From Acidobacteriota bacterium (GTDB lineage Bacteria > Acidobacteriota > Vicinamibacteria > Vicinamibacterales > UBA2999): a stretch of DNA of 64,000 bases. The DNA lies in assembly GCA_021730945.1 (NCBI GenBank), contig JAKFYH010000049.1, positions 19,855-83,854 on the forward strand, written 5' to 3'. The notes below the pieces were generated by a model that made no database searches, had not been told where the DNA came from, and saw only the letters and a list, made by a program, of their open reading frames with translations. The position numbers and the translations under genes are program-made. Shown one piece after another: positions 1,037 through 56,990 of the stretch. Numbering within the stretch: the first letter of the stretch is position 1; each line of letters begins with the position of its first letter.

Positions 1037-3892
1037 CTACTTCAGCACGAACCGTCGCCACGTCTCGACGATCGCGCGGTCGGGGCCGCCAAGTGCCTGG
1101 TGGCGCTCGACGTAGTTACGGAATCGGGCCAGGTTGTCCGGACTGAGGCCCTTGTCCTGCCCGTGCATGCGATACAGCACCTGGACGGCAATGAACAGCA
1201 GTGGCTGATCATCGGTGCTCCCGCTGTCCAGCAGGTCGACCAGTTTCGGCAGCGCGCCGCGGTAATCGCCCAGCATGGCCAGGGCCGTGGCCTCGCGACG
1301 GAGCCGCGCATTGTCACTGGCCCATGCCGACGGCGCCTCTTCGAGCAGGTCCACGGCCTGGCGGCCGTCGCCCAAACGCAACAACGCATCCACCAGCGCG
1401 GGATAGACCGCACCAGGATTCTCACTGAGCAGCGCCAGTTGCCACGCCCCCACCGCGTCCTTGTCTCGGCCGAGCGCGGCGTGGGTCGCACCGAGATAGA
1501 ACGCCGCGCCCAGGAAGTCGGACGCGCCCTTCAAGGTTTGCTGGAACCACGCCGCGGCCTGGGGCACCTCGCCCTTGTTCAACGCCTCGAGGCCGCGCAG
1601 GAACGCCAGGTTCAACTCATCATCAGCGGTGCCGCCGGTCTCCAGCGGTGCGGCGTACTGGCCGCCGCGCGCCTTCTCGATCAGCTCTTCCACCTCCGGC
1701 GACGGCGGGTGCAGGGACGCCAGGCCATCGAGGAACGGCGTGACGACCGACGGAATCAATACGCTCTCGCGGACGAACCGCGGCACCGGTGCGAAGATCT
1801 TGACCTCGGCCAGCGGCGCCGGTGGCGCATCGGGATCGAGTGGCACCAGGGTATCGATCGAGACGGCGGTGGTGTCGGCCACGACCGGCGCCATCAGAAA
1901 GGGACGCACCAGGCGCAACTCGGCCAGGCCCGGGGTCCTGATCACCGCGCGGGCGATGTATTCGCCGGGCGGCAACACGCCCAGTCGCAGCGTGGCGGCG
2001 AACGCGCGCAGGTTGTTCGCCCGCATGGCCTGCCGCGCCTCGACGCTCACCAGCGCGTTGCCGTTCTCGGCGTCGGCAATCTCCACGGTCGCTCGCGACC
2101 GCGCCAGCAAGCCGGCGTCGGTGCCGCTCATTTCGACCAAAGCGGTCAGCGTCTCGCTGTCGATGATGCCGGAGGGCCGCGGCCGGGGGAGGTCGCCGCC
2201 GCTTGGCGCCTGCGGCACCAGCATCAGGTCCGACACGCTCAGGCCGCCGCCGGTGCGCGTGAGGCGGGCGTTGATGGTGTGGTGCACGCTGCCGGCGCGT
2301 CCGTGCTCGTCGACGGCGGCAAGTCGCAGCGTGTACTCGCCCGGATCCAGCAGCAGCGAGGTCAGGATCAGCCGCGGCGACTCGCCGCGCACGCTGGCCG
2401 GCGACAACGTGCTCATGCCGGCGCGGTTGAAGACGGCGCGGTCGTTCTTGTCGAGGATGACGATGCCGATCGGCAGCTCCATCTCGGTGCCGGCCGGATC
2501 GCCGAACTCGGCGCTGATGACCACGCGCACCTTCGCGGCGGAGTCCGCATCGATATTGGTGTAGGTGGCCACGCGCATCGGCAGGCCGCGGCTGGGCAGG
2601 GGCTGGCGCAGCACGTCGGTGAGCTGCTCCATCGGGGTCATGGCCGCCGCCGCCGTGTCGGCGGCCGCCTCGGCGTCGCGCAGGACGAAGGTCGGCCGCG
2701 CCCGCACCGTCAGGCCGCGCGGCTTGACCTGCACTTTGATGCGGTGCTCCTTGCCACGGCGATCGGCTTCAGTCGGTTCGAAGCCGAGCAGGTAGTATCC
2801 CGACAGTTCGCGGCCGAGGCGATCGAAGGCGCCGGCGGCCGACGCGTTCACCGTCGCCAGGGTCCCACGGGTTTGTGCCGCCAACTGCTCCAGTCCCTCG
2901 CTCAGCAGCCCATCATCGAAGAACCGCGACACGCCAGGCGAGGCGTTGTCGTCCATGTCGAAGTACGACTGGCCGGGGCGGATGACGTGGATGGTGGCGC
3001 GCGCCTCGGCGGCGCGGCGGCCGAGTTCGCGCATGTTGTTGCGATCGCGAGCGACGAACATGCCCTCGGAGATCATCACGATGTTGATGGGGGTCCTGAG
3101 CTGGGTGAGGCCGGTCAGCAGTCCCTCGAGAGCGCCGATGGTCATGCGCGTGCGCGAGCTGGCGTCGAGCAGCAGGCTGCGGCCATCGGCCTCGACCGCG
3201 CTGCTGCAGGCGTCCAGGCTGGGGCCGGTTTCCCCCGCGCACTCCCGGTCGATGGCCTGTTGCCAGGTCGCGGTGTCGTTGTTCTCAAGCGCCCACGCCT
3301 CGCTGATGTTGACCTTGGTCATGCCGGCGCGGTTGGTGACGCTGCCGGTGACCTTGAGCAGGGCATCGGTGACCCGCTTGCGGTCGGTCGTGAACTCGAC
3401 GCCGCCGACCCCGGTCGGCAGGCGGGCCAGGCCGACCAGGTCGCCCGGCGCCAGCCGGTCGAAGAGCGACTGCGCCGTGCGCAGCACCGAGCGCGACGAG
3501 CCCACCCGGAGATTGCTTTCATCCACGACAAACAGCAAAAGGCGGCCGGTGGTGGCGGTGTCGTTGGCCGAGTAGCCGGTTTCCCGAGGCGTGGCCGGGC
3601 TGACGTTGGTCGGCACGGTGGAGATGAACTGCACCGACTGAATCGGCCGCGGCTGGCCATTGACCTCCAACTCGAAGTCGGCCGCCGTCAGTGTGGCTAC
3701 CGGCCTGGTGTCGCGATCGACAACGTTGACGTCGACCAGGACCAGTTCGGCCCTGGTATCGAAACTTGGCCGCGGCAACTGCGGCGTCGCCTGCGCGGCG
3801 AACACCGTCGCCGCCGCCATTGCCACGATCACCGTCGCCAGGGTCGCGACGCCTCTCCCACCGCCCGCCGCCCGCTTCCCGGCTGCCATCAC
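1037..3892 (-). CDS. Secreted VWFA (acidobacterial VWFA-related type) protein with long middle region and C-terminal TPR-like repeats
   Basis: 951-aa ORF with an N-terminal hydrophobic anchor. The family-typical N-domain reads ELVLVDVNVVDRDTRPVATLTAADFELEVNGQPRPIQSVQF. A VWA core (LLLFVVDESN) is followed by HRIKVQVKPRGLTVRARPTF. The helical-repeat tail reads AAWFQQTLKG...LGDYRGALPKL. Confidence 0.8.
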   Translation of the reverse strand: MMAAGKRAAGGGRGVATLATVIVAMAAATVFAAQATPQLPRPSFDTRAELVLVDVNVVDRDTRPVATLTAADFELEVNGQPRPIQSVQFISTVPTNVSPATPRETGYSANDTATTGRLLLFVVDESNLRVGSSRSVLRTAQSLFDRLAPGDLVGLARLPTGVGGVEFTTDRKRVTDALLKVTGSVTNRAGMTKVNISEAWALENNDTATWQQAIDRECAGETGPSLDACSSAVEADGRSLLLDASSRTRMTIGALEGLLTGLTQLRTPINIVMISEGMFVARDRNNMRELGRRAAEARATIHVIRPGQSYFDMDDNASPGVSRFFDDGLLSEGLEQLAAQTRGTLATVNASAAGAFDRLGRELSGYYLLGFEPTEADRRGKEHRIKVQVKPRGLTVRARPTFVLRDAEAAADTAAAAMTPMEQLTDVLRQPLPSRGLPMRVATYTNIDADSAAKVRVVISAEFGDPAGTEMELPIGIVILDKNDRAVFNRAGMSTLSPASVRGESPRLILTSLLLDPGEYTLRLAAVDEHGRAGSVHHTINARLTRTGGGLSVSDLMLVPQAPSGGDLPRPRPSGIIDSETLTALVEMSGTDAGLLARSRATVEIADAENGNALVSVEARQAMRANNLRAFAATLRLGVLPPGEYIARAVIRTPGLAELRLVRPFLMAPVVADTTAVSIDTLVPLDPDAPPAPLAEVKIFAPVPRFVRESVLIPSVVTPFLDGLASLHPPSPEVEELIEKARGGQYAAPLETGGTADDELNLAFLRGLEALNKGEVPQAAAWFQQTLKGASDFLGAAFYLGATHAALGRDKDAVGAWQLALLSENPGAVYPALVDALLRLGDGRQAVDLLEEAPSAWASDNARLRREATALAMLGDYRGALPKLVDLLDSGSTDDQPLLFIAVQVLYRMHGQDKGLSPDNLARFRNYVERHQALGGPDRAIVETWRRFVLK

Positions 3893-5046
3893 TTGGGCCC
3901 CGGCGCGCGATAGCCCTGGCGGGCGCGCACCGAGTAGTTGGTGCCAGGCACTTCGATCCTGACTTCACGCCAGGCCCCGTCCCGCTTGGGATTGTTCGAT
4001 TCGTACCCCAGCATGTACTGGTTCGACAGTTCTTCGAGGATCTCGGCGAACGGCTGGTCGAGTTGATCGCTGCGGTCCACGAACAGGGCGCGTCCGCCGC
4101 TCAGGTTGACCAGGCGTTCGATGCCGGACTTGAGCTGCGCCTCCCGCACGCCGCGGCCAAGCGCCACCATGAACAGCGTGGCGTCGTTGGCCCGCACCGC
4201 CTTTTCGACCGCGCTGATGGTGGCGTGGCTCGAACGGTCGTCGCCGTCGCTGAACACCACGAGCACCCGCCGGCCGGCGGCGCGCGACAGTTGCTGCACC
4301 CCGCGGACGATCACGTCGTAGAGGGCGGTCCCGCCCCACGGTGCCAGTCGATCGACCGCGCGCGTCCGTTGCACGACGCTGGTTTCCTGCCGGGTGAGGG
4401 TGAACATGTTGTCGTTGAAGGCGACCAGCGTGACCTGATCCTTCGGCCCGAGCGCGCCGAGGAACTTCTTCACCGCATTCTTCAACTGTGGCATCGACGC
4501 GGTCATGCTCTCGCTGACATCGATGGCGACGACGATCTCGAGTGGTGACCCTTCGGCGGAGAAATGGCCGACCACCTGCGGCTTGCCGTCTTCGATCAGG
4601 CGGAATGCCGTCGGCGGCAGCCCGGACACGAAGCGATTGTTCTCGGTCACCACCGCGGTCACCTGCACCACCTCGACACTGACCTTCTCGACCTGCTCCA
4701 GGCCCCTGGTGCGCGCGCTGGCGACGATGCGGCCGCCGCCGATCAAGTTGGCGACCACCCGGAAGACGTGGGGGCGGACGTCGGCGCCGGCGTCCCAGGT
4801 GCATTCGGCGGCAATCGGATCCAGCACGTTGCACACCTGCTTGCCATCGGCGAAGAACAAGAGTTGCGCCACGCGCGTGGCCAGCATGCGCGGCAGGATC
4901 TCGGCCTTGAGCAGGGTGACGCCGCTGACATAGAAATCCGGCTCCGGTGAAACAATGCGAAGTTCGAGCCCGGCCGGCGGTGGCGGCGGTTCCTGCGCTG
5001 ATGCGACCAACGAGAACGCCGTGAGCAAGACAATCAGTCGCAACAT
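3889..5046 (-). CDS. Secreted VWFA (acidobacterial VWFA-related type) protein
   Basis: The ORF track gives 3889..5115. I prefer ATG 5046 (MLRLIVLLTAFSLVASAQE signal peptide), because the upstream 69 nt are a palindromic repeat. It has the MIDAS-like IVVAIDVSESM motif and a C-terminal WREVRIEVPGTNYSVRARQGY. There is a 4-bp ATGA overlap with the downstream gene. Confidence 0.85.
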   Translation of the reverse strand: MLRLIVLLTAFSLVASAQEPPPPPAGLELRIVSPEPDFYVSGVTLLKAEILPRMLATRVAQLLFFADGKQVCNVLDPIAAECTWDAGADVRPHVFRVVANLIGGGRIVASARTRGLEQVEKVSVEVVQVTAVVTENNRFVSGLPPTAFRLIEDGKPQVVGHFSAEGSPLEIVVAIDVSESMTASMPQLKNAVKKFLGALGPKDQVTLVAFNDNMFTLTRQETSVVQRTRAVDRLAPWGGTALYDVIVRGVQQLSRAAGRRVLVVFSDGDDRSSHATISAVEKAVRANDATLFMVALGRGVREAQLKSGIERLVNLSGGRALFVDRSDQLDQPFAEILEELSNQYMLGYESNNPKRDGAWREVRIEVPGTNYSVRARQGYRAPGPK

Positions 5047-17856: not shown

Positions 17857-17887
17857 TCCCAAGTCCCAAGCCCCAAGTCCCAAGCCC
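17857..17887. repeat. Heptamer tandem repeat (YCCCAAG) x4 filling an intra-operon spacer
   Basis: The sequence TCCCAAG TCCCAAG CCCCAAG TCCCAAG CCC lies between the propeller-gene stop (17887) and the VWFA start (17850). Confidence 0.8.
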
Positions 17888-22235: not shown

Positions 22236-22259
22236 CCACTTCCAGCGTAGCCGAAATAT

Positions 22260-22336
22260 CCCTGATCCCTGATCCCTGATCCCTGATCCCTGATCCCTGA
22301 TCCCTGATCCCTGATCCCTGATCCCTGATCCCTGAT
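22260..22336. repeat. Perfect heptamer microsatellite (CCCTGAT) x11
   Basis: I counted 11 units directly. The array occupies 77 of the 112 bp between divergent start codons 22235 (-) and 22348 (+). On the minus strand it reads (GGGATCA)n. Confidence 0.95.
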
Positions 22337-32062: not shown

Positions 32063-32210
32063 ACGTCGGGATCCTAAGCCGAACGGGGACCATTCTCCAC
32101 ACGTTGCGGCGATCGCCCGAATCGGCGTTCAAATCTGCCGCTGGCCGACAGCAATCCGAAGCTGTGATCATCGGCGGCGCTTATAATCCGTCGGGGCGAG
32201 GATCGCGCAG

Positions 32211-33560
32211 ATGACACAGATGACACAGTTCTCACGAGTTTCACGGGTGCTGCTGATGGTGCTGGGGCTGGCCTCCATTGGGGTGGCCGCGCAGCAGAAC
32301 CGGATTGATACCGTCACGCCGAATGCGCCTGAGTTGGCTGGGTATGGCCCGCTCAGTATCGGCGTACGGACCATTCAGGTCACTGACAAGAACCGGCCCG
32401 ACATCCTCAACACCAAGGAGGGCGCGCCGCTGGCGCGTTACGACCGTACCCTGACGCTCGAGGTCTGGTATCCGGCCTCACTGGCGGCGGGGCAGCAGCC
32501 CGGCGGCGAGTATCGCGTCATCACCCGCGATCCCGCCGTAACGGCCACCATCCTCGGCAAGGCCGTGCGTGACGCCGCGCCGCTCGCCCCCGGCCAGCAG
32601 AAGCCTGGCGAAGGCGGCTATCCACTCGTCGTGATCTCGCACGGCTATCCCGGTAATCGCTACTTGATGAGCCACATCGGCGAGAACCTGGCCAGCAAGG
32701 GCTTTGTCACCGTCTCGATCGATCACAAGGACAGCACCTACGACGACCAGAAGGCGTTTGGCAGCACGCTCTACAACCGGTCGTTCGATCAGCTATTCGT
32801 GATCAACGAGATCGAGCGTCTGGGCAGGCCCGGCGCGGGCAGCTTTCTGAGCGGCCTGGTCGACGCCAGCCGCACCGGCATTGTCGGCTACTCGATGGGC
32901 GGCTACGGTGTCGTCAATGTCATTGGCGGCGGCTATAGCGATGCCAGCGTGAACGGCGCGCAGGCGCCGCCGAACAAGCTGCTGGCCGAACGCGCGGCGT
33001 CGAATCCGGTGTACCGGCAGGGACGCGATCCGCGGATCAAGGCGGCGATTGCCATCGGCCCGTGGGGTATGCCGGCCGGGTTCTGGGACGCCGAGGGATT
33101 GCAGGGCATTCGCACACCCGTGCTGTTCGTGGCCGGGAGCGCGGATGACGTGTCGGGGTACGAGAAGGGCACGCGCGCCATCTACCAGGGCGCGGTGAAT
33201 GCCGATCGCTACCTGCTGACGTTCATCAACGCGGGCCACAACGCCGCCGCGCCGATGCCGGCGCCGGTCGAGGCCTACCGTGGCACGGGATCAGGCGCGC
33301 CAGGATTTTCCCACTACGCCGATTCGGTGTGGGACACCGCGCGGATGAACAACATCTTCCATCACTTCGCGACGGCCTACTTCGACCGCTACCTGAAGGG
33401 CGAATCGGACAAGCAGGCCTACTTCGACGTGGTGCCGAATGGGAAAGATGGGGTCTATGCGATGGACCGCGAGAGCAAGCCCCTGCCGACGCACACCTAC
33501 TGGAAGGGCTTCAAGCGCGGGACCGCGGTGGGCCTGATCCTCGAGCACGCGCAGCCCTAA
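32211..33560 (+). CDS. Secreted alpha/beta hydrolase (PAF-acetylhydrolase / dienelactone-hydrolase-like)
   Basis: It has a signal peptide, the nucleophile elbow VGYSMGGYG and the motifs VISHGYPGN and GHNAA. The first codons (MTQMTQ) overlap a copy of the CAGATGACA repeat motif, so the start could be slightly later. Confidence 0.7.
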   Translation: MTQMTQFSRVSRVLLMVLGLASIGVAAQQNRIDTVTPNAPELAGYGPLSIGVRTIQVTDKNRPDILNTKEGAPLARYDRTLTLEVWYPASLAAGQQPGGEYRVITRDPAVTATILGKAVRDAAPLAPGQQKPGEGGYPLVVISHGYPGNRYLMSHIGENLASKGFVTVSIDHKDSTYDDQKAFGSTLYNRSFDQLFVINEIERLGRPGAGSFLSGLVDASRTGIVGYSMGGYGVVNVIGGGYSDASVNGAQAPPNKLLAERAASNPVYRQGRDPRIKAAIAIGPWGMPAGFWDAEGLQGIRTPVLFVAGSADDVSGYEKGTRAIYQGAVNADRYLLTFINAGHNAAAPMPAPVEAYRGTGSGAPGFSHYADSVWDTARMNNIFHHFATAYFDRYLKGESDKQAYFDVVPNGKDGVYAMDRESKPLPTHTYWKGFKRGTAVGLILEHAQP

Positions 33561-39010: not shown

Positions 39011-39082
39011 GACGGCCAACGGCGGCCGCGTGGCCGGACAGCCGCGCGGATCAAGCCAGTCGGCAATCGACGACTCTCCAAT

Positions 39083-39110
39083 CCCCGATCCCTGATCCCC
39101 GATCCCTGAT
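39083..39110. repeat. Heptamer tandem repeat (CCCCGAT CCCTGAT) x2, same family as 22260-22336
   Basis: I counted the units directly. The array lies between the stop of the metX-hom fusion (39112) and the start of the PLP enzyme (39010). Confidence 0.85.
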
Positions 39111-46042: not shown

Positions 46043-46128
46043 GTTGAGAGTTGAAAGTTGAAAGTTGAAAGTTGGCAGTTTCAGTTTCAGTTTCAGTTTC
46101 AGTTTCAGTTTCAGTTTCAGTTTCAGTT
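46043..46128. repeat. Left inverted arm: (GTTGARA)x5 followed by (GTTTCA)x8
   Basis: I counted the units directly. It is the reverse complement of the 46671-46762 arm. Confidence 0.9.
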
Positions 46129-46148
46129 GTGAGTGGTGAGTTCACGCC

Positions 46149-46562
46149 TTAGGGTTTGGAGCGGCGGCGGGGGTTCCCCTCTTGCTGTAGCCGGTTGGCG
46201 ACCTTGATCGCGATCGCTGCGAAGATCGCGCACAGCTGGCCGGCTTCATCCTCGGCCGCGGCCAATGGCTCGAATCCGTCGAGCTTCCCGAGCCGAAGCT
46301 TGACCAGGCACATCCGGGACTCCTTCGCTTCCCTCAGCGTGAGTTCGATTTTGTACAGGAAGTCGGCGGTGCTTGAGGCGTCCTCTGCTTCAACCAGATT
46401 GTTCGAAACCGAATCCGCCGCCCGCACCAGCTGACCCCAGACGGTGGCACTCGGAAGGTTGCTGAACTGGCCTGGACACGCCAGATTGACGCTGGTCGTA
46501 AACTTGAGCGCACGCTCCTGCAGAGCGAGGGTTCGCTGGCGGGCTGCGGTTATTGGTTTCAT
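46149..46562 (-). CDS. Four-helix-bundle protein (23S rRNA intervening-sequence protein family)
   Basis: The sequence ERALKFTTSV...VWGQLVRAADSVSNNLVEAEDASSTADFLYKIELTLREAKESRMCL fits the family pattern (QL.RAA.S...NI.EG......DF...L.IA.GS..E). The start is set at ATG 46562. The track ORF to 46736 reads into the repeat arm. Confidence 0.8.
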   Translation of the reverse strand: MKPITAARQRTLALQERALKFTTSVNLACPGQFSNLPSATVWGQLVRAADSVSNNLVEAEDASSTADFLYKIELTLREAKESRMCLVKLRLGKLDGFEPLAAAEDEAGQLCAIFAAIAIKVANRLQQEGNPRRRSKP

Positions 46563-46670
46563 GCTCTGGCATAAAGCAAACCAGGATCCAGCCGAAATCG
46601 CGAGAGAATGGCAGAACCGGCCACCACAGGTACGCACTTTCCGAGCAAGCCGCTGCCGTCCGACTGCGTA

Positions 46671-46762
46671 AAAACTGAAACTGCAACTAGAACTGCAACT
46701 GAAAACTGAAACTGAAACTGAAACTGAAACTGCCAACTTTCAACTGCCCACTTTCAACTCCT
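46671..46762. repeat. Right inverted arm: (CTGAAA/CTGCAA)n ... CTGCCAAC TTTCAAC TGCCCAC TTTCAAC
   Basis: It is the reverse complement of the left arm, with unit-number differences. Confidence 0.9.
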
Positions 46763-52704: not shown

Positions 52705-54261
52705 TCAGCGCAGCGGCGGCGTGCTCTCGGGCGCGCGGCGGTGATGGGTGGCCTGCTCGTAAGCATACGCAAGTTTGATCAACGCCGGCTCCGACCACGC
52801 CCGGCCGAAGAACGTGATGCCGGCCGGCAAGCGGCCGCCCCGCGTGTAGCCCATCGGCACCTGGATCGACGGGAACCCCGTCGTCGGCGAAAAGAACTGA
52901 CTGTTGTCGCCGCCAGGAGTGTTGAGGTCGCCGATTAGCCGTGGCGGGTTGCTCCAGGTGGGGTAGACCCAGGCGTCCAGCTTCTGTGCGTCCATGGTCT
53001 TGTTGACGGCGTCGCGCACGCGCTGGCGATACTCGGCGTCGGCCTTGCATTCGGGTGAGTCGGGCCCGTTCTCGGGTCCCTGCTCGCCCTGCTCGAGCTG
53101 GCGCCGGACGGTGGGGTGGAACTTGCCGGACTTGACGATCTCGGCCAGGCTCTTCACCGGTACGCGGTCGCCGTGCGACGCGAGGTAACGGTTGATGTCG
53201 TACTTGAATCCGCCACAGGCGCCCATGCCCGGCGTGCGCCTGATCTCAGCGAGAACCTCGACCACGCCGGGATCGATGATGGTAGCGCCTTGCGCCCGAA
53301 GGTCATCGACCGCGCGCATGAACACCTGGACGATCTCGGGGTCGGTGCTGTCGCGCTCGTAGGCAAAGCGCAGCACGCCGATGCGGGCGCCCTTCAAGCC
53401 TTCGCGGACGAGCGACGCCGCGTAGTCCTGGGGCAGGTGCGCCGCGGCCGCCGCCGTGACCGGATCGGCCGGGTCGCTGCCGACCACCACCTGGAACACC
53501 TTGACCGCATCTTCCACGGTGCGCGCCATCGGCCCGGCAATATCGGCCAGCAGGTTGAGCGGCATCACGCCGCCGCGGCTGGTCAAGCCCATGGTCGAGC
53601 GAATGCCGACCAGCGCCTGATGCGATGACGGACCACGAATGGAGTTGCCGGTGTCGCTGCCGAGGCCGACCGCGCCGAAGCTGGCGGCCACCGATGCCGC
53701 CGTGCCACCGCTCGATCCCGCGGTGACCCGATCGAGCGCATAGGGATTCCTGGTGTAGCCCGGCAGGATGGAGCTGAGCGTTTCGTTCGGCGTGAACGCC
53801 CACTCGGCCATGTTCGACTTGGCCAGCACGATGGCGCCGGCCGCCTTGATGCGCGCCACCTGGAAGGCATCCTTGTTGGAGACGAAGCCTTCGAGCGCGA
53901 GCGAGCCGTTGGCGCTTTGCAGGCCGATGGTCTCGAAGTTGTCCTTCACGATCATCGGCACGCAGTGCAGCGGACCGGTGAGGCCGCCTTGCGTAAACCG
54001 CCGGTCGAGATCGTCGGCCTGCGCCAGCGCCTGCGGGTTGGTCAGGATGATGGCGTTGACGGCGGGCCCGTTCTTGTCGAACACGTCGATGCGTCGCAGA
54101 TACTGCTCGACCAGCCCTCGACAGGTGAGCTGCCTGGCCTGCATTGCCGCATGGATCTGCGCGATGGTGGCTTCGTGCACCTCCCACACCGATGGGGCCT
54201 GGCCAGAGGCAGGGACGACGACAAGGACGGCGAACAGGGCGGAGAGAAGGCGAGTAGTCAC
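52705..54261 (-). CDS. Secreted amidase (amidase-signature family)
   Basis: The AS signature is TAGSSGGTAASVAASFGAVGLGSDTGNSIRGPSS. The start is set at GTG 54261 (VTTRLLSALFAVLVVVPASGQA), because the track ORF continues into the 58-bp repeat array. Confidence 0.85.
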   Translation of the reverse strand: MTTRLLSALFAVLVVVPASGQAPSVWEVHEATIAQIHAAMQARQLTCRGLVEQYLRRIDVFDKNGPAVNAIILTNPQALAQADDLDRRFTQGGLTGPLHCVPMIVKDNFETIGLQSANGSLALEGFVSNKDAFQVARIKAAGAIVLAKSNMAEWAFTPNETLSSILPGYTRNPYALDRVTAGSSGGTAASVAASFGAVGLGSDTGNSIRGPSSHQALVGIRSTMGLTSRGGVMPLNLLADIAGPMARTVEDAVKVFQVVVGSDPADPVTAAAAAHLPQDYAASLVREGLKGARIGVLRFAYERDSTDPEIVQVFMRAVDDLRAQGATIIDPGVVEVLAEIRRTPGMGACGGFKYDINRYLASHGDRVPVKSLAEIVKSGKFHPTVRRQLEQGEQGPENGPDSPECKADAEYRQRVRDAVNKTMDAQKLDAWVYPTWSNPPRLIGDLNTPGGDNSQFFSPTTGFPSIQVPMGYTRGGRLPAGITFFGRAWSEPALIKLAYAYEQATHHRRAPESTPPLR

Positions 54262-54273
54262 GGCGAGATCATA

Positions 54274-54655
54274 GCCCCAGACACAGATGCCGGGGCCGCA
54301 GACACAGACCGGGGCCGCAGATGACACAGATGACGCAGATCAGGGGCCTGGGGCCGCAGACACAGACCGGGGCCGCAGATGACACAGATGACGCAGATCA
54401 GGGGCCTGGGGCCGCTGACACAGACCGGGGCCGCAGATGACACAGATGACGCAGATCAAGGGGCCCGAGGCCGCAGACACAGACCGGGGCCGCAGATGAC
54501 ACAGATGACGCAGATCAGGGGCCCGAGGCCGCAGACACAGACCGGGGCCGCAGATGACACAGATGACGCAGATCAGGGGCCCAGGGCCGCAGACACGGAC
54601 CAGGGCCGCAGATGACAAAGATGACGCAGATCAAGGGGCTCAGGGCCGCAGACCT
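54274..54655. repeat. 58/59-bp tandem repeat array, about 6.5 units
   Basis: The unit is GCCGCAGACACAGACCGGGGCCGCAGATGACACAGATGACGCAGATCAGGGGCCTGGG. Unit starts are at 54295, 54353, 54411, 54470, 54528, 54586 and 54645. The whole unit repeats, so there are no unique spacers. Confidence 0.95.
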
Positions 54656-54741
54656 GTCCCGCCGTAGCTGGCAGCGCGAAGGCGGATGACGCAAGTGACG
54701 CAGATATCACGGTGCAGGACCGGCGGCGCGGCGAAGCCGCG

Positions 54742-54819
54742 TCTGTAGACCGGTGAAGCTCGAGGCGAGCAAGCGGAGCGATCGGGGCTTGTTCGCCTCG
54801 GGCTTCCCCGGTCTACAGA
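54742..54819. other. Long imperfect hairpin (32-bp arms, 29/32 paired, 14-nt loop)
   Basis: TCTGTAGACCGGTGAAGCTCGAGGCGAGCAAG (54742-54773) pairs with CTTGTTCGCCTCGGGCTTCCCCGGTCTACAGA (54788-54819). Smaller hairpins flank it (GCGGC-GAA-GCCGC and GGGCCGC-TAC-GCGGCCC). Confidence 0.8.
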
Positions 54820-54848
54820 TCGGGCCGCTACGCGGCCCCGCCGGTCGC

Positions 54849-55244
54849 TCACCGTGTCTGAGTCAGGATGAACCGCTTGTACTCCAGCTTGGCAGAGCCG
54901 AAGTTGAGCAGCAGTCCGCACTGACACGCGGACGAGGCGAGGTAGCTCAAGACCTGCGCCTGCTCCGCCGGCCCGGTGCCGAAGCGGGCCTTCACCTCGA
55001 CCACGACCGAGTCGAAGCAGACAAAATCCATGCGGTAATGCCCACGTAACGGGTGGGTCTTGTAAGCGACCCGACAGGGCGCTTCGGCCACAAACGGAAT
55101 GTCGCGCAGGCCGAACTCGATGGCGAGCGCGTCGCGGTAGAAGACTTCGAGAAAGCCGGATCCCAGGACTCGATGCACTTCCATCGCGGCGCCAATGATC
55201 GCAAACGTCCGAGGGTCGCTCGGTGCCGAGAAGTTCGTCGTCAT
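54849..55244 (-). CDS. GxxExxY protein (small PD-(D/E)XK-like family)
   Basis: The start is ATG 55244. The sequence is IIGAAMEVHRVLGSGFLEVFYRDALAIEFGLRDIPF...YRMDFVCFDSVVVEVKA...QVLSYL...GLLLNFG. The eponymous motif is G-F-L-E-V-F-Y. Confidence 0.85.
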   Translation of the reverse strand: MTTNFSAPSDPRTFAIIGAAMEVHRVLGSGFLEVFYRDALAIEFGLRDIPFVAEAPCRVAYKTHPLRGHYRMDFVCFDSVVVEVKARFGTGPAEQAQVLSYLASSACQCGLLLNFGSAKLEYKRFILTQTR

Positions 55245-55372
55245 GCCCTCACAGACGCAAACGGCGTGCCCAACGGGGTCCCAGAGAAAGCGCTCGCAAT
55301 TGGGGAGCGACGGGCGGCCCGGTACTTGGCTTGGTGGCGGAAATTGCAATGGTGAAATGACCTCAACATGGC

Positions 55373-55468
55373 AAATCCCGCAATCCCGCAATCCCGCAAT
55401 CCCGCAATCCCGCAATCCCGCAATCCCGCAATCCCGCAATCCCTAAATCACCCAATCACCAAATCAAG
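55373..55468. repeat. Octamer tandem repeat (CAATCCCG) about x8 perfect, decaying into AAATCACC/CAATCACC units
   Basis: I counted the units directly. The array lies between divergent genes with starts at 55244 (-) and 55518 (+). It is followed at 55468-55500 by an inverted partial copy of the 58-mer unit. Confidence 0.9.
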
Positions 55469-55517
55469 ATCTGCGTAATCTGTGTCATCTGTGGCCCTGG
55501 TGTAGTTAGGATGTCGC

Positions 55518-56990
55518 ATGCTGAGCCGCGCGCTGATGCTTCTGTCCGTCTCTTCCGTCCTGGCGGCCGCCCAAATCCCCCAATCTGCGTTCGAGGCATT
55601 GCAGCCCGACCTGCTTGGCGCGCCATCGGCGTTCACCAATGCCTTTGCCGACTATGACAATGACGGCGACCTGGACTTGTTTGTCGGCTTCGACGGCCAA
55701 CCCAACCGGCTCTATCGCAACGACCGGGGCGTGTTCAGCGATGTCGCGCGGGTGGCCGGTGTGGCCGATGCGCGGCCGACGCGGGCGGTGGCGTGGGGCG
55801 ACTTCGATGCCGATGGCGATTCCGACCTCCTGGTCGGGTTCACGCCAAGCCCGGGCGCATCGGTGTTGCGGGTTTACCGCAACGATGCCGGCAAGTTCAT
55901 TGATGTCACGGCCGGCATCGGTTTGATGGTGGCCACCGGAGCGGTGCGGCAGCCGGCGTGGGTCGACGTCGATGCCGACGGCGATCTCGACTTGTTCGTC
56001 GCCTATCGCGATCGTGCCAATGCGCTCTATCGCAACGATGGGGGTACGTTCGCCGACGTGGCGCCCTCGTTGGGGCTCGCAGACACGCGGCGGACGGTGG
56101 GCGCGGTCTGGTTCGACTACGACGAAGACGGCGATCTCGACCTGGCCGATGCCAACATGGACGGCGACGCCAACGGTCTCTATCGCAACGACGCCGGACG
56201 ATTCACGGATGTTGCCGAAGCCGCCGGCGTGGCCTGGGGCGGCCGCGCGCCCAGGCTCCCGGGCAATGGCACCGTGCGAGTATGCGCGGCCGATGTCGAC
56301 AGCGATGGCCGCTTCGACCTGTTTGCCGCCAACTACGGCCCGCTCGGCTTCTTCAGCAATCGCGGCAAGGGTGTGTTCGAGGATCGCGGCGCGGCATGGC
56401 AGGTGGCCATCGACTCTCGCTACGACACCTGTGCGTTTGCCGACGTCGACCACGATGGCCGCCTCGACCTGTATGTCAACGGCACGGTCACCGGCGGCGC
56501 CAGTTGGCAGGACACCTTGTTCCGCAATACCGGCTCGGCGCTGGTCGATGTCACCCCGCCGTCGATCCGGCGCCTGCAGGCCGACCACGGCGTGCAGTGG
56601 GCCGATGTTGATGGCGACGGCGATCTCGATCTGGCCCTGACTGGAGCACGCGCCGATGGCATGCACCTGGTGATGCGCAACCTGTTGCCGGCCGCCGACG
56701 CGGCTCGGGGCCTCCACATCCGCGTGGTCGACGCACAGGGGCATGCCACCCTCGCCGGGGCCGAGGTGCGGGTGTATGCGGCCGGCACGACGCGCCTGAT
56801 CGGTAGCCGCTTAATGGACAGTGGTTCCGGCTACGACGCGCAGAACGACATGCCCGCGCACGTCGGCGTCCCCGCCGGCGTGGCACGCGTCGACGTGCAG
56901 GTGATCGCGCCGCGCCACGGCCGCCGCGTGCCGGTGTGGCAACGGGGCGTGGTGCCCGGCAAGACCGTGACGGTGCGGGTTTCTCGCTAG
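55518..56990 (+). CDS. Secreted FG-GAP/VCBS repeat protein (CRTAC1/ASPIC-UnbV-like)
   Basis: It has repeated DYDNDGDLDLFVG...NRLYRND.G.F.DVA modules, at least six of them. It has a signal peptide. Confidence 0.8.
   Translation: MLSRALMLLSVSSVLAAAQIPQSAFEALQPDLLGAPSAFTNAFADYDNDGDLDLFVGFDGQPNRLYRNDRGVFSDVARVAGVADARPTRAVAWGDFDADGDSDLLVGFTPSPGASVLRVYRNDAGKFIDVTAGIGLMVATGAVRQPAWVDVDADGDLDLFVAYRDRANALYRNDGGTFADVAPSLGLADTRRTVGAVWFDYDEDGDLDLADANMDGDANGLYRNDAGRFTDVAEAAGVAWGGRAPRLPGNGTVRVCAADVDSDGRFDLFAANYGPLGFFSNRGKGVFEDRGAAWQVAIDSRYDTCAFADVDHDGRLDLYVNGTVTGGASWQDTLFRNTGSALVDVTPPSIRRLQADHGVQWADVDGDGDLDLALTGARADGMHLVMRNLLPAADAARGLHIRVVDAQGHATLAGAEVRVYAAGTTRLIGSRLMDSGSGYDAQNDMPAHVGVPAGVARVDVQVIAPRHGRRVPVWQRGVVPGKTVTVRVSR

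Follow-up and report, generated by a model that had tools for sequence, protein, structure and literature searches.

In bacteria, intervening sequences (IVSs) are removed from the 23S pre-rRNA through the cutting of a long stem by RNase III. In Coxiella, the terminal inverted repeats of the IVS form a stem of 28 bp which is cut by RNase III, and the open reading frame (ORF) of the IVS has long been hypothesised to encode a mobility function (PMC4990558). Another known association of a gene with inverted repeats is that of the REP-associated tyrosine transposases (RAYTs), which are described as single-copy and vertically inherited, with repetitive extragenic palindromes (REPs), which are dispersed, intergenic and mostly arranged in inverted pairs (PMC3116915, PMC3337134). 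Here, a unit of the GxxExxY gene family bounded by inverted repeats is described from a stretch of 64,000 nucleotides of an Acidobacteriota genome (assembly GCA_021730945.1, contig JAKFYH010000049.1), which is called the window throughout. The unit has been inserted, as an accessory element, between an amidase gene and an FG-GAP gene which are divergent. In related genomes it is gained, lost, degraded and replaced in opposite orientation, and at other loci its gene is accompanied by the same arms. These arms are a property of the gene and not of the site. The unit looks like an undescribed kind of mobile gene cassette, and we lean, without strong commitment, to the reading that region 54274-55501 is a cassette bounded by inverted repeats, with a nuclease that acts on the arms of the cassette itself.

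By comparison of design, the closest known systems are REP/REPIN-RAYT (REPIN, REP doublet forming hairpin) and the ORF-carrying rRNA IVSs. Like the ORF-carrying 23S rRNA IVSs (Leptospira, Coxiella burnetii; S23p / 23S_rRNA_IVP ORF), the cassette has one small ORF of unknown function within terminal inverted repeats of about 30 bp, a sporadic distribution with suspected horizontal transfer, and complementary termini which are able to form a stem around the insert (34 nt, 91%) and are kept in relatives. A neighbouring cassette of the window (46152-46562) encodes that very protein family. In contrast to these IVSs, the cassette lies between protein-coding genes and not in an rRNA gene, its ORF encodes a PD-(D/E)XK protein and not a four-helix bundle, and its arms are composed of 9-mer iterons, which are tandemly amplified and also dispersed without a gene, with no signature of RNA pairing in the arm mismatches. 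A first-pass annotation of the window had called the cassette 'IVS-type'; the label is no more than an analogy, and there is no rRNA in the window.

With the REP/REPIN-RAYT systems the cassette shares a short intergenic dispersed repeat, found mostly as hairpin-capable inverted pairs together with solo copies, a gene flanked by inverted copies of the same repeat, purifying selection and long residence at a locus. However, its enzyme is a 131-aa PD-(D/E)XK protein and not an HUH/Y1 (IS200/IS605-like) transposase, and the gene is found with its arms at different loci, in both orientations and with frequent decay. Lacking an HUH transposase and situated outside rRNA, the cassette is a member of neither system. 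Insertion sequence (IS) elements and miniature inverted-repeat transposable elements (MITEs) resemble it in terminal inverted repeats, a single gene, gene-less derivatives with the same ends and presence/absence polymorphism, while the cassette differs in having no recognised transposase family, no target-site duplication that could be seen, and ends made of iteron arrays that vary in copy number. A resemblance to free-standing homing endonuclease genes lies in the small ORF with a putative nuclease fold, in a homologous site which exists in filled, empty and decayed form, and in the cycle of invasion followed by decay and loss. Unlike them, the cassette is not situated in an intron or intein, its enzyme is not known to cleave an empty site, and its flanking homology is a dispersed inverted repeat and not unique host sequence. 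No earlier description of a repeat-bounded or mobile GxxExxY cassette was found in the open-access literature, and none of the papers naming GxxExxY there treats repeats or mobility.

Arms of the cassette

The cassette unit extends from 54274 to 55501 and is bounded by inverted repeats. The GC content is about 66% across the profiled 52-58 kb of the window. The parts of the unit and the genes on its two flanks are as follows.

52705-54261, minus strand: amidase gene with GTG start, one flank of the insertion site
54274-54653, plus strand: left arm, 58-bp tandem array, on the amidase side and downstream of the gene
54681-54706, plus strand: degenerate extra arm fragment GGCGGATGACGCAAGTGACGCAGATA, between array and hairpin (54692-54705 with 2 mismatches)
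54712-54850, minus strand: palindromic four-way-junction module, directly 3' of the gene
54849-55244, minus strand: GxxExxY gene, 131 aa, PD-(D/E)XK nuclease superfamily by hidden Markov model scores
55245-55373, minus strand: leader upstream of the gene, from an alignment of 11 loci
55374-55457, plus strand: octamer microsatellite (AATCCCGC) x 8.8 with a decaying tail (array proper 55374-55443 in Tandem Repeats Finder)
55468-55501, minus strand: right arm, one inverted long copy of the variant ...CAGATTACGCAGATC, on the FG-GAP side and upstream of the gene
55518-56990, plus strand: FG-GAP repeat protein gene with ATG start, the other flank of the insertion site

The array, the inverted copy, the hairpin, the 131-aa GxxExxY gene and the octamer array had all been listed in the first-pass annotation, and each was found in its place. 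The 58-bp array possesses 6.2 copies with 95% matches at 54290-54653 (Tandem Repeats Finder). In each 58-bp unit the repeat occurs twice, in a short form GGGGCCGCAGACACAGAC and in a long form GGGGCCGCAGATGACACAGATGACGCAGATC, and the copies in this array read 5'-GGGCC...CAGATGAC-3' toward the gene. In an inverted-repeat search, the right arm of 34 nt was complementary at 31/34 positions (91%) to every one of the six array units. The inverted match quoted earlier, between 54601-54636 and the reverse complement of 55468-55500, was reproduced with 29 of 32 positions matching. The pattern of the 30-nt core, searched with up to 3 mismatches, matched only the six array units and the inverted copy, and the number expected from 100 dinucleotide-preserving shuffles was 0.00. 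As a flank control, the best inverted-repeat score across the flanks of a 400-nt interior was taken at 600 random positions, giving a mean of 9.0, a standard deviation of 1.5 and a 99th percentile of 13. Against this control the window cassette scored 25 and the arm-flanked GxxExxY copies of Acidobacteriota scored 15-31, placing the inverted match of the window well over the background.

The arm is a repeat of about 30 nt, in which a CCAGGGCC cap precedes two or three 9-mers of the sequence CAGATGACR. It reads inward on both sides and is often tandemly amplified. In the downstream arm of locus L136 (L136:1740-1865) the 9-mer is expanded to about 13 tandem copies (CATCTGCGT/CATCTGTGT), so the iterons behave as a microsatellite themselves. 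The right arm of the window is 94% identical to the amidase-side arm of L002 and L003. Compared with L002, the window shows 94% identity in the arms but only about 80% in the coding sequence, which argues that the arms are constrained or homogenised. The 58-mer-type unit, which lies on the amidase side in the window, was found on the FG-GAP side in L003. The 58-mer-type and ATTAC-type arms have thereby swapped sides between the two loci (L003:4821-4895, L003:5559-5600) with the gene orientation remaining equal, pointing to an exchange of arms or to two successive inversions. Mismatches between the two arms were tallied in 22 cassettes; 18 were of sense-wobble type, 17 of antisense-wobble type and 51 of other types, with no bias to G.U. 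A CRISPR-like (clustered regularly interspaced short palindromic repeats) reading of the 58-bp array was rejected, because the stretches separating the repeat cores are themselves repeated and not unique. ORFs crossing the array on either strand were discarded as repeat artefacts.

The GxxExxY protein

The 131-aa protein scored 121.3 bits with TIGR04256 and 113.7 bits with PF13366 (PDDEXK_3), both far over the cut-offs of 35 and 22 bits, respectively. PD-(D/E)XK / GxxExxY was the sole match of the protein in Pfam and NCBIfam, and no transposase domain was found there. The GxxExxY motif is present as G30-F-L-E33-V-F-Y36, and none of 32 homologues departs from the catalytic-type residues D73, E83 and K85. 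The AlphaFold2 model (predicted local distance difference test score, pLDDT, of 83) has an alpha-alpha-beta-beta-beta-alpha-beta-beta topology. Its best Foldseek matches were PD-(D/E)XK nucleases (lambda exonuclease, Cas4, 3ijm) at a weak level, with E about 1e-3 and template modelling (TM) score about 0.5. Since these matches are weak and generic for PD-(D/E)XK, the fold search says nothing on the substrate. The protein found no sequence match in PDB, and no PADLOC or PHROG model matched either this protein or the four-helix-bundle protein of the neighbouring cassette.

Among intact GxxExxY genes the ratio of nonsynonymous to synonymous substitution (dN/dS) was 0.06-0.14, with dS of about 1, i.e. 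with synonymous sites near saturation. By these values, the gene is under strong purifying selection. A search with the window protein revealed about 9,800 cluster representatives at 50% identity, and an exact look-up of the window's own protein matched no contig. No further GxxExxY or four-helix-bundle paralogues were found by phmmer across all 8,672 ORFs of the retrieved DNA. Some members of the family, 250-411 aa long, hold two tandem GxxExxY domains (P0254, P0259, P0302, P0332).

The amidase/FG-GAP junction in related genomes

The closest relatives of the window are metagenome-assembled genomes of Vicinamibacterales (Acidobacteriota). The comparison covered the contexts of close GxxExxY homologues and 80 genomes with an orthologous amidase, nearly all of them metagenome assemblies, and the states of the junction were read by tblastn and direct inspection. 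The gene is intact and co-oriented with the amidase in the window and in L001-L004, L007, L013, L130 and L189. It is intact in the opposite orientation, with the arms unchanged, in L005/L006 and L094. Damaged forms were found in L009 (C-truncated), L010 (internal deletion), and L191 and L208 (both N-deleted), and L017 has no gene but keeps the arm arrays and the hairpin. In L012, L014-L016, L020, L022, L023, L028 and L064 the junction is empty, with 35-100 bp only, and the empty junction of L014 retains a single CCAGGGCCACAGAC remnant. The gene is bracketed by the arms at all orthologous junctions that are filled (L001-L007, L009, L010, L013, L130, L189), and at all filled loci the upstream side carries CCAGGGCCGCAGATGACRCAGATGAC... 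reading toward the gene and the downstream side its reverse complement. The boundaries of the cassette are conserved and polymorphic in relatives, contrary to the refuting condition which the first-pass annotation had set: the same arms occur at filled junctions, empty, gene-less and deleted versions exist, and related genes carry the arms at other loci too.

In the amidase tree the outgroups have empty junctions, and L012 and L014 branch from within the filled genomes. The simplest history of the junction is that the cassette was inserted and later decayed and was lost. The flipped genes of L005 and L094 branch outside the clade of co-oriented copies and are about 79% identical to them, and the hairpin remnant in L005 did not turn with the gene. 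A simple inversion of the resident cassette is not favoured for these reasons, and replacement or re-insertion is the likelier origin of the flipped copies.

The insertion site is flanked by two -10-like boxes, TATGAT at 54268-54273 (minus strand), 6 nt before the amidase GTG, and TAGGAT at 55507-55512 (plus strand), 5 nt before the FG-GAP ATG. Both are conserved in empty junctions, and the amidase and FG-GAP mRNAs are suggested to be leaderless. The cassette is placed exactly between these boxes, so that its arms take in any -35 region that either gene may have.

The same junction also holds other inserts. L011 possesses a 470-aa membrane-protein (transporter-like) ORF there (2447-3990), and L024, L026 and L035 carry unrelated REP-like hairpins. 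The amidase/FG-GAP junction is a general insertion hot spot.

The same arms at other loci and as a dispersed repeat

GxxExxY genes with 63-78% identity to that of the window carry the same arms at about four further junctions. Genes of 77-78% identity with the same arm arrays are situated at the TPM-phosphatase/creatininase junction (L087-L092) and the LptC/RecJ junction (L093), and the genome of L087-L092 has an empty amidase junction (L015). The L136 gene is 63% identical and has arms on both sides, and near the L113 gene (67% identical) downstream copies alone were seen.

An exact 21-mer of the arm was searched in metagenome contigs, where at least 120 stretches matched. Among the matches listed, 6 had the gene beside the motif. 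The gene-less matches took three forms, namely tight palindromes composed of an arm, a loop of about 20 nt and an inverted arm; arms around a four-way hairpin resembling that of the window; and solo copies or short arrays abutting genes. Several matches lay on separate large contigs of one sample, the one from which L002 comes. L013 has a gene-less element on the far side of the FG-GAP gene. Palindromic pairs and solo copies of the arm sequence make up a dispersed family which resembles REPs.

Within the window, a solo copy of the 9-mer repeat (CGCAGATGACACAGATGACACAG, 32204-32231) overlaps the ATG of the ORF at 32211-33560. Solo copies abutting gene starts or ends are common among the metagenome matches too.

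GxxExxY cassettes in other phyla

Nine plasmid-borne GxxExxY genes, at eight loci outside Acidobacteriota, were examined, with the following arms.

Bacteroides finegoldii (L224): 30 nt, 90% complementary, CACCACAGAGGACGCAGAGGACACGGAG, 28 nt upstream of the ATG and 9 nt downstream of the stop
Bernardetia (L225): 28 nt, 86% complementary
Sphingomonas (L227): 25 nt, 92% complementary, between fabD and fabG
Treponema (L222): 16 nt, 88% complementary
Gemmatirosa, two copies (L223, L226): a full palindrome on either side, with CCGCAGAGGACGCAGAGG as the building unit in one of the copies
Fusobacteria (L229): 17 nt, 88% complementary, weak
Prevotella (L228) and Persicobacter (L221): weak, about 72-81% complementary

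The inverted-repeat design is a property of the GxxExxY protein family across phyla. The CAGAGGACR motif found in Bacteroides and Gemmatirosa (Bacteroidota and Gemmatimonadota) is one base off the CAGATGACR of the window arms. The plasmid cassettes of Sphingomonas parapaucimobilis (L227) and Bacteroides finegoldii (L224) are compact, about 430-470 bp, and lie between co-oriented housekeeping genes, which are fabD and fabG in the former and radA followed by a gene for an FAD-dependent protein in the latter. Their arms are within a few bases of the stop or start codons of the neighbours. In the compact cassettes 2-33 nt separate the upstream arm from the ATG and 1-10 nt the stop from the downstream arm; in the window the spacing between the arm and the ATG is 223 nt.

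The four-helix-bundle cassette of the window

The second gene of similar arrangement in the window is the following.

46152-46562, minus strand: four-helix-bundle gene (TIGR02436 / PF05635, '23S rRNA IVS protein'), within 46043-46760

It lies amid inverted (GTTGAAA)n(CAGTTT)n arrays, whose arms of 58 nt are 95% complementary. Homologues of this gene keep inverted arrays of the GTTGAAA/CAGTTT type at the same locus (L215, L216) and, as GTTCAAA, at a different locus (L217-L220). A search of plasmids with the four-helix-bundle protein gave no match, and the comparison of this family therefore covers Acidobacteriota. Genome GCA_001768615.1 holds both a GxxExxY cassette (L092) and a four-helix-bundle cassette (L217), each with different arms, so the arms are specific to the cassette family and not to the genome. 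The first-pass annotation had seen one architecture in two unrelated gene families and had proposed a common mechanism. The shared architecture stands, since four-helix-bundle homologues at two loci at least keep their arrays and GxxExxY genes of other phyla are bracketed as well. As the arm sequences of the two families are unrelated, the 'common mechanism' is to be understood as a common design and not as a shared enzyme.

Hairpin module and leader

The cargo of the cassette is composed of the leader and the GxxExxY gene, together with, in the lineage of the window, the palindromic four-way hairpin module. The module consists of an outer stem ACCGGCGG/CCGCCGGT, a pair of small hairpins which are conserved, and a central stem which is long and variable. 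Folding of 54700-54860 gave a four-way junction of -113 kcal/mol (z = -10.9), and its central stem of about 30 pairs corresponds to the hairpin with 32-bp arms that had been noticed before. The central stem is hypervariable yet perfectly complementary. When 6 loci were folded as an alignment, compensatory double changes were seen in 19 of the 53 pairs, with G.U almost absent. Taken together with the lack of wobble bias in the arm mismatches, this indicates that complementarity is kept at the DNA level rather than by selection on an RNA stem. The module is also found without a gene (L017:3821-3955, L013:1470-1650, L167:6385-6545, L117:3990-4090), and at further sites. Rfam gave only generic hairpin (microRNA) matches under threshold, and nothing in the window, rRNA included, reached the gathering score.

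Two blocks of the leader are conserved across loci, GGCAC...ATTGCGTC right before the ATG and GCAnTTTCyGC farther upstream. No sigma-70 promoter or terminator consensus was found in 54200-55600.

Proposed mechanism and rival explanations

In the explanation we favour, the GxxExxY nuclease would recognise the 9-mer iterons of its own arms, either as duplex or as extruded hairpin, and would nick or cut there. Repair or recombination between arm copies could then move, invert, amplify or delete the unit and let arms be exchanged. The GxxExxY gene would in this way be a PD-(D/E)XK counterpart of the RAYT transposase flanked by its own REPs, or of the ORF-carrying intervening sequence. RNA pairing of the arms may also insulate host transcripts, but the data do not require that. 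A more general proposal, tentative and less probable, is that GxxExxY (PF13366) proteins are the dedicated nucleases of widespread, multi-phylum iteron-armed mini-cassettes and of the REP-like repeats derived from them, with the four-helix-bundle IVS proteins as a parallel class having its own arms, and the ORF-carrying rRNA IVSs as a special case landed in an rRNA helix.

Several points weigh against an arm-acting nuclease. The literature shows no nuclease activity, DNA binding or transposition for any PF13366 protein, and the family is listed as one of unknown function. No target-site duplication is visible at the filled junction, with no direct repeat around the arms when filled and empty junctions are compared. 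The dS of about 1 among co-oriented copies at the amidase/FG-GAP junction speaks for long vertical residence there, so that movement of the cassette must be rare. The placement of the flipped copies rests on 131 residues and on a tree without support values. The gene-less copies at the junction look like deletion products rather than unoccupied targets. Moreover, most of the genomes are metagenome-assembled and repeats break assemblies, as in L008, which stops at the junction.

The main rival places the function in RNA. As in IVS elements, the arms would pair in the transcript, and RNase III would cut the stem and thereby excise the cassette from read-through or operon transcripts or set the mRNA ends, mobility being incidental. 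The architecture resembles that of ORF-carrying IVS elements, and the other cassette of the window encodes the IVS-protein family PF05635/TIGR02436. In the compact cassettes, between fabD and fabG of Sphingomonas and after radA of Bacteroides, the arms abut the ORF between co-oriented housekeeping genes and so must be transcribed, which makes this reading attractive for such cassettes inside operons. However, in the window there is no rRNA and the arm lies 223 nt from the ATG. The arm mismatches have no sense-strand G.U bias (18 sense, 17 antisense, 51 other), and the hairpin covaries almost solely through full Watson-Crick double changes. The 9-mer is kept across phyla although RNase III has no need of one, and the solo copies, gene-less palindromes and tandem amplification of arms are left unexplained. 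We regard pairing in RNA as fairly unlikely to be the whole explanation, though it is compatible with a nuclease acting on its own arms and the two are not exclusive. Strong purifying selection with long residence at one locus, 9-mers conserved across phyla and a junction which takes other inserts too (L011, L024, L026, L035) would also suit a domesticated host gene, i.e. a defence or repair nuclease or a regulator whose iterons are its own regulatory or binding sites and whose polymorphism is ordinary gain and loss in a hot spot. This is improbable in our estimate, as no PADLOC or PHROG model matches the protein, the arms mostly occur without the gene, the gene and both arms move to unrelated junctions in both orientations, and decay is frequent.

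A programmed invertible switch, in which a recombinase flips the gene or a promoter in the style of phase variation, would account for both orientations at one junction and for the exchanged positions of the 58-mer and ATTAC arm variants between the window and L003, an outcome expected of repeated flipping. But no recombinase gene is found among the neighbours at any locus, flipped and co-oriented copies share only about 79% identity and the L005 hairpin remnant is unflipped, and the orientation does not obviously put the gene under an external promoter, making such a switch very improbable. Even less credence is given to a chance neighbourhood, in which a gene merely came to lie between two copies of a generic intergenic REP-like element. 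The repeat is indeed dispersed and mostly gene-less, with a solo copy at 32204-32231. Nevertheless, every recovered gene of the clade has arms on both sides in the same polarity, at five junctions at least, with the exception of L113 (downstream copies only). Acidobacteriota flank scores of 15-31 exceed the control 99th percentile of 13, and distant phyla share the design with a related 9-mer. The chance reading is largely refuted.

PF13366/GxxExxY and PF05635/four-helix-bundle IVS proteins are large families without known function, and the origin and movement of ORF-carrying rRNA intervening sequences have been an open question since the early 1990s. Arms which are specific to a gene family and partly shared across phyla, along with gene-less palindromes, give a testable hypothesis that the protein acts on its own arms, and the 9-mer iterons supply defined substrates for biochemistry. 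Such an activity would extend the REP/RAYT paradigm to a second class of enzymes and would account for a group of short repeats, and of assembly breaks, in the genomes of Acidobacteriota.

Microsatellites of the cassette and the window

The octamer run of the cassette is unique to the window and is missing in orthologous cassettes. Similar AATCCCGA/CCCAA runs follow the GxxExxY gene of L113. Other intergenic perfect microsatellites of short unit in the window are situated at 22258-22336, 39081-39110 and 17858-17887, with (ATCCCTG) x 11, ATCCCCGATCCCTG x 2 and CCCAAGT-type runs as units.

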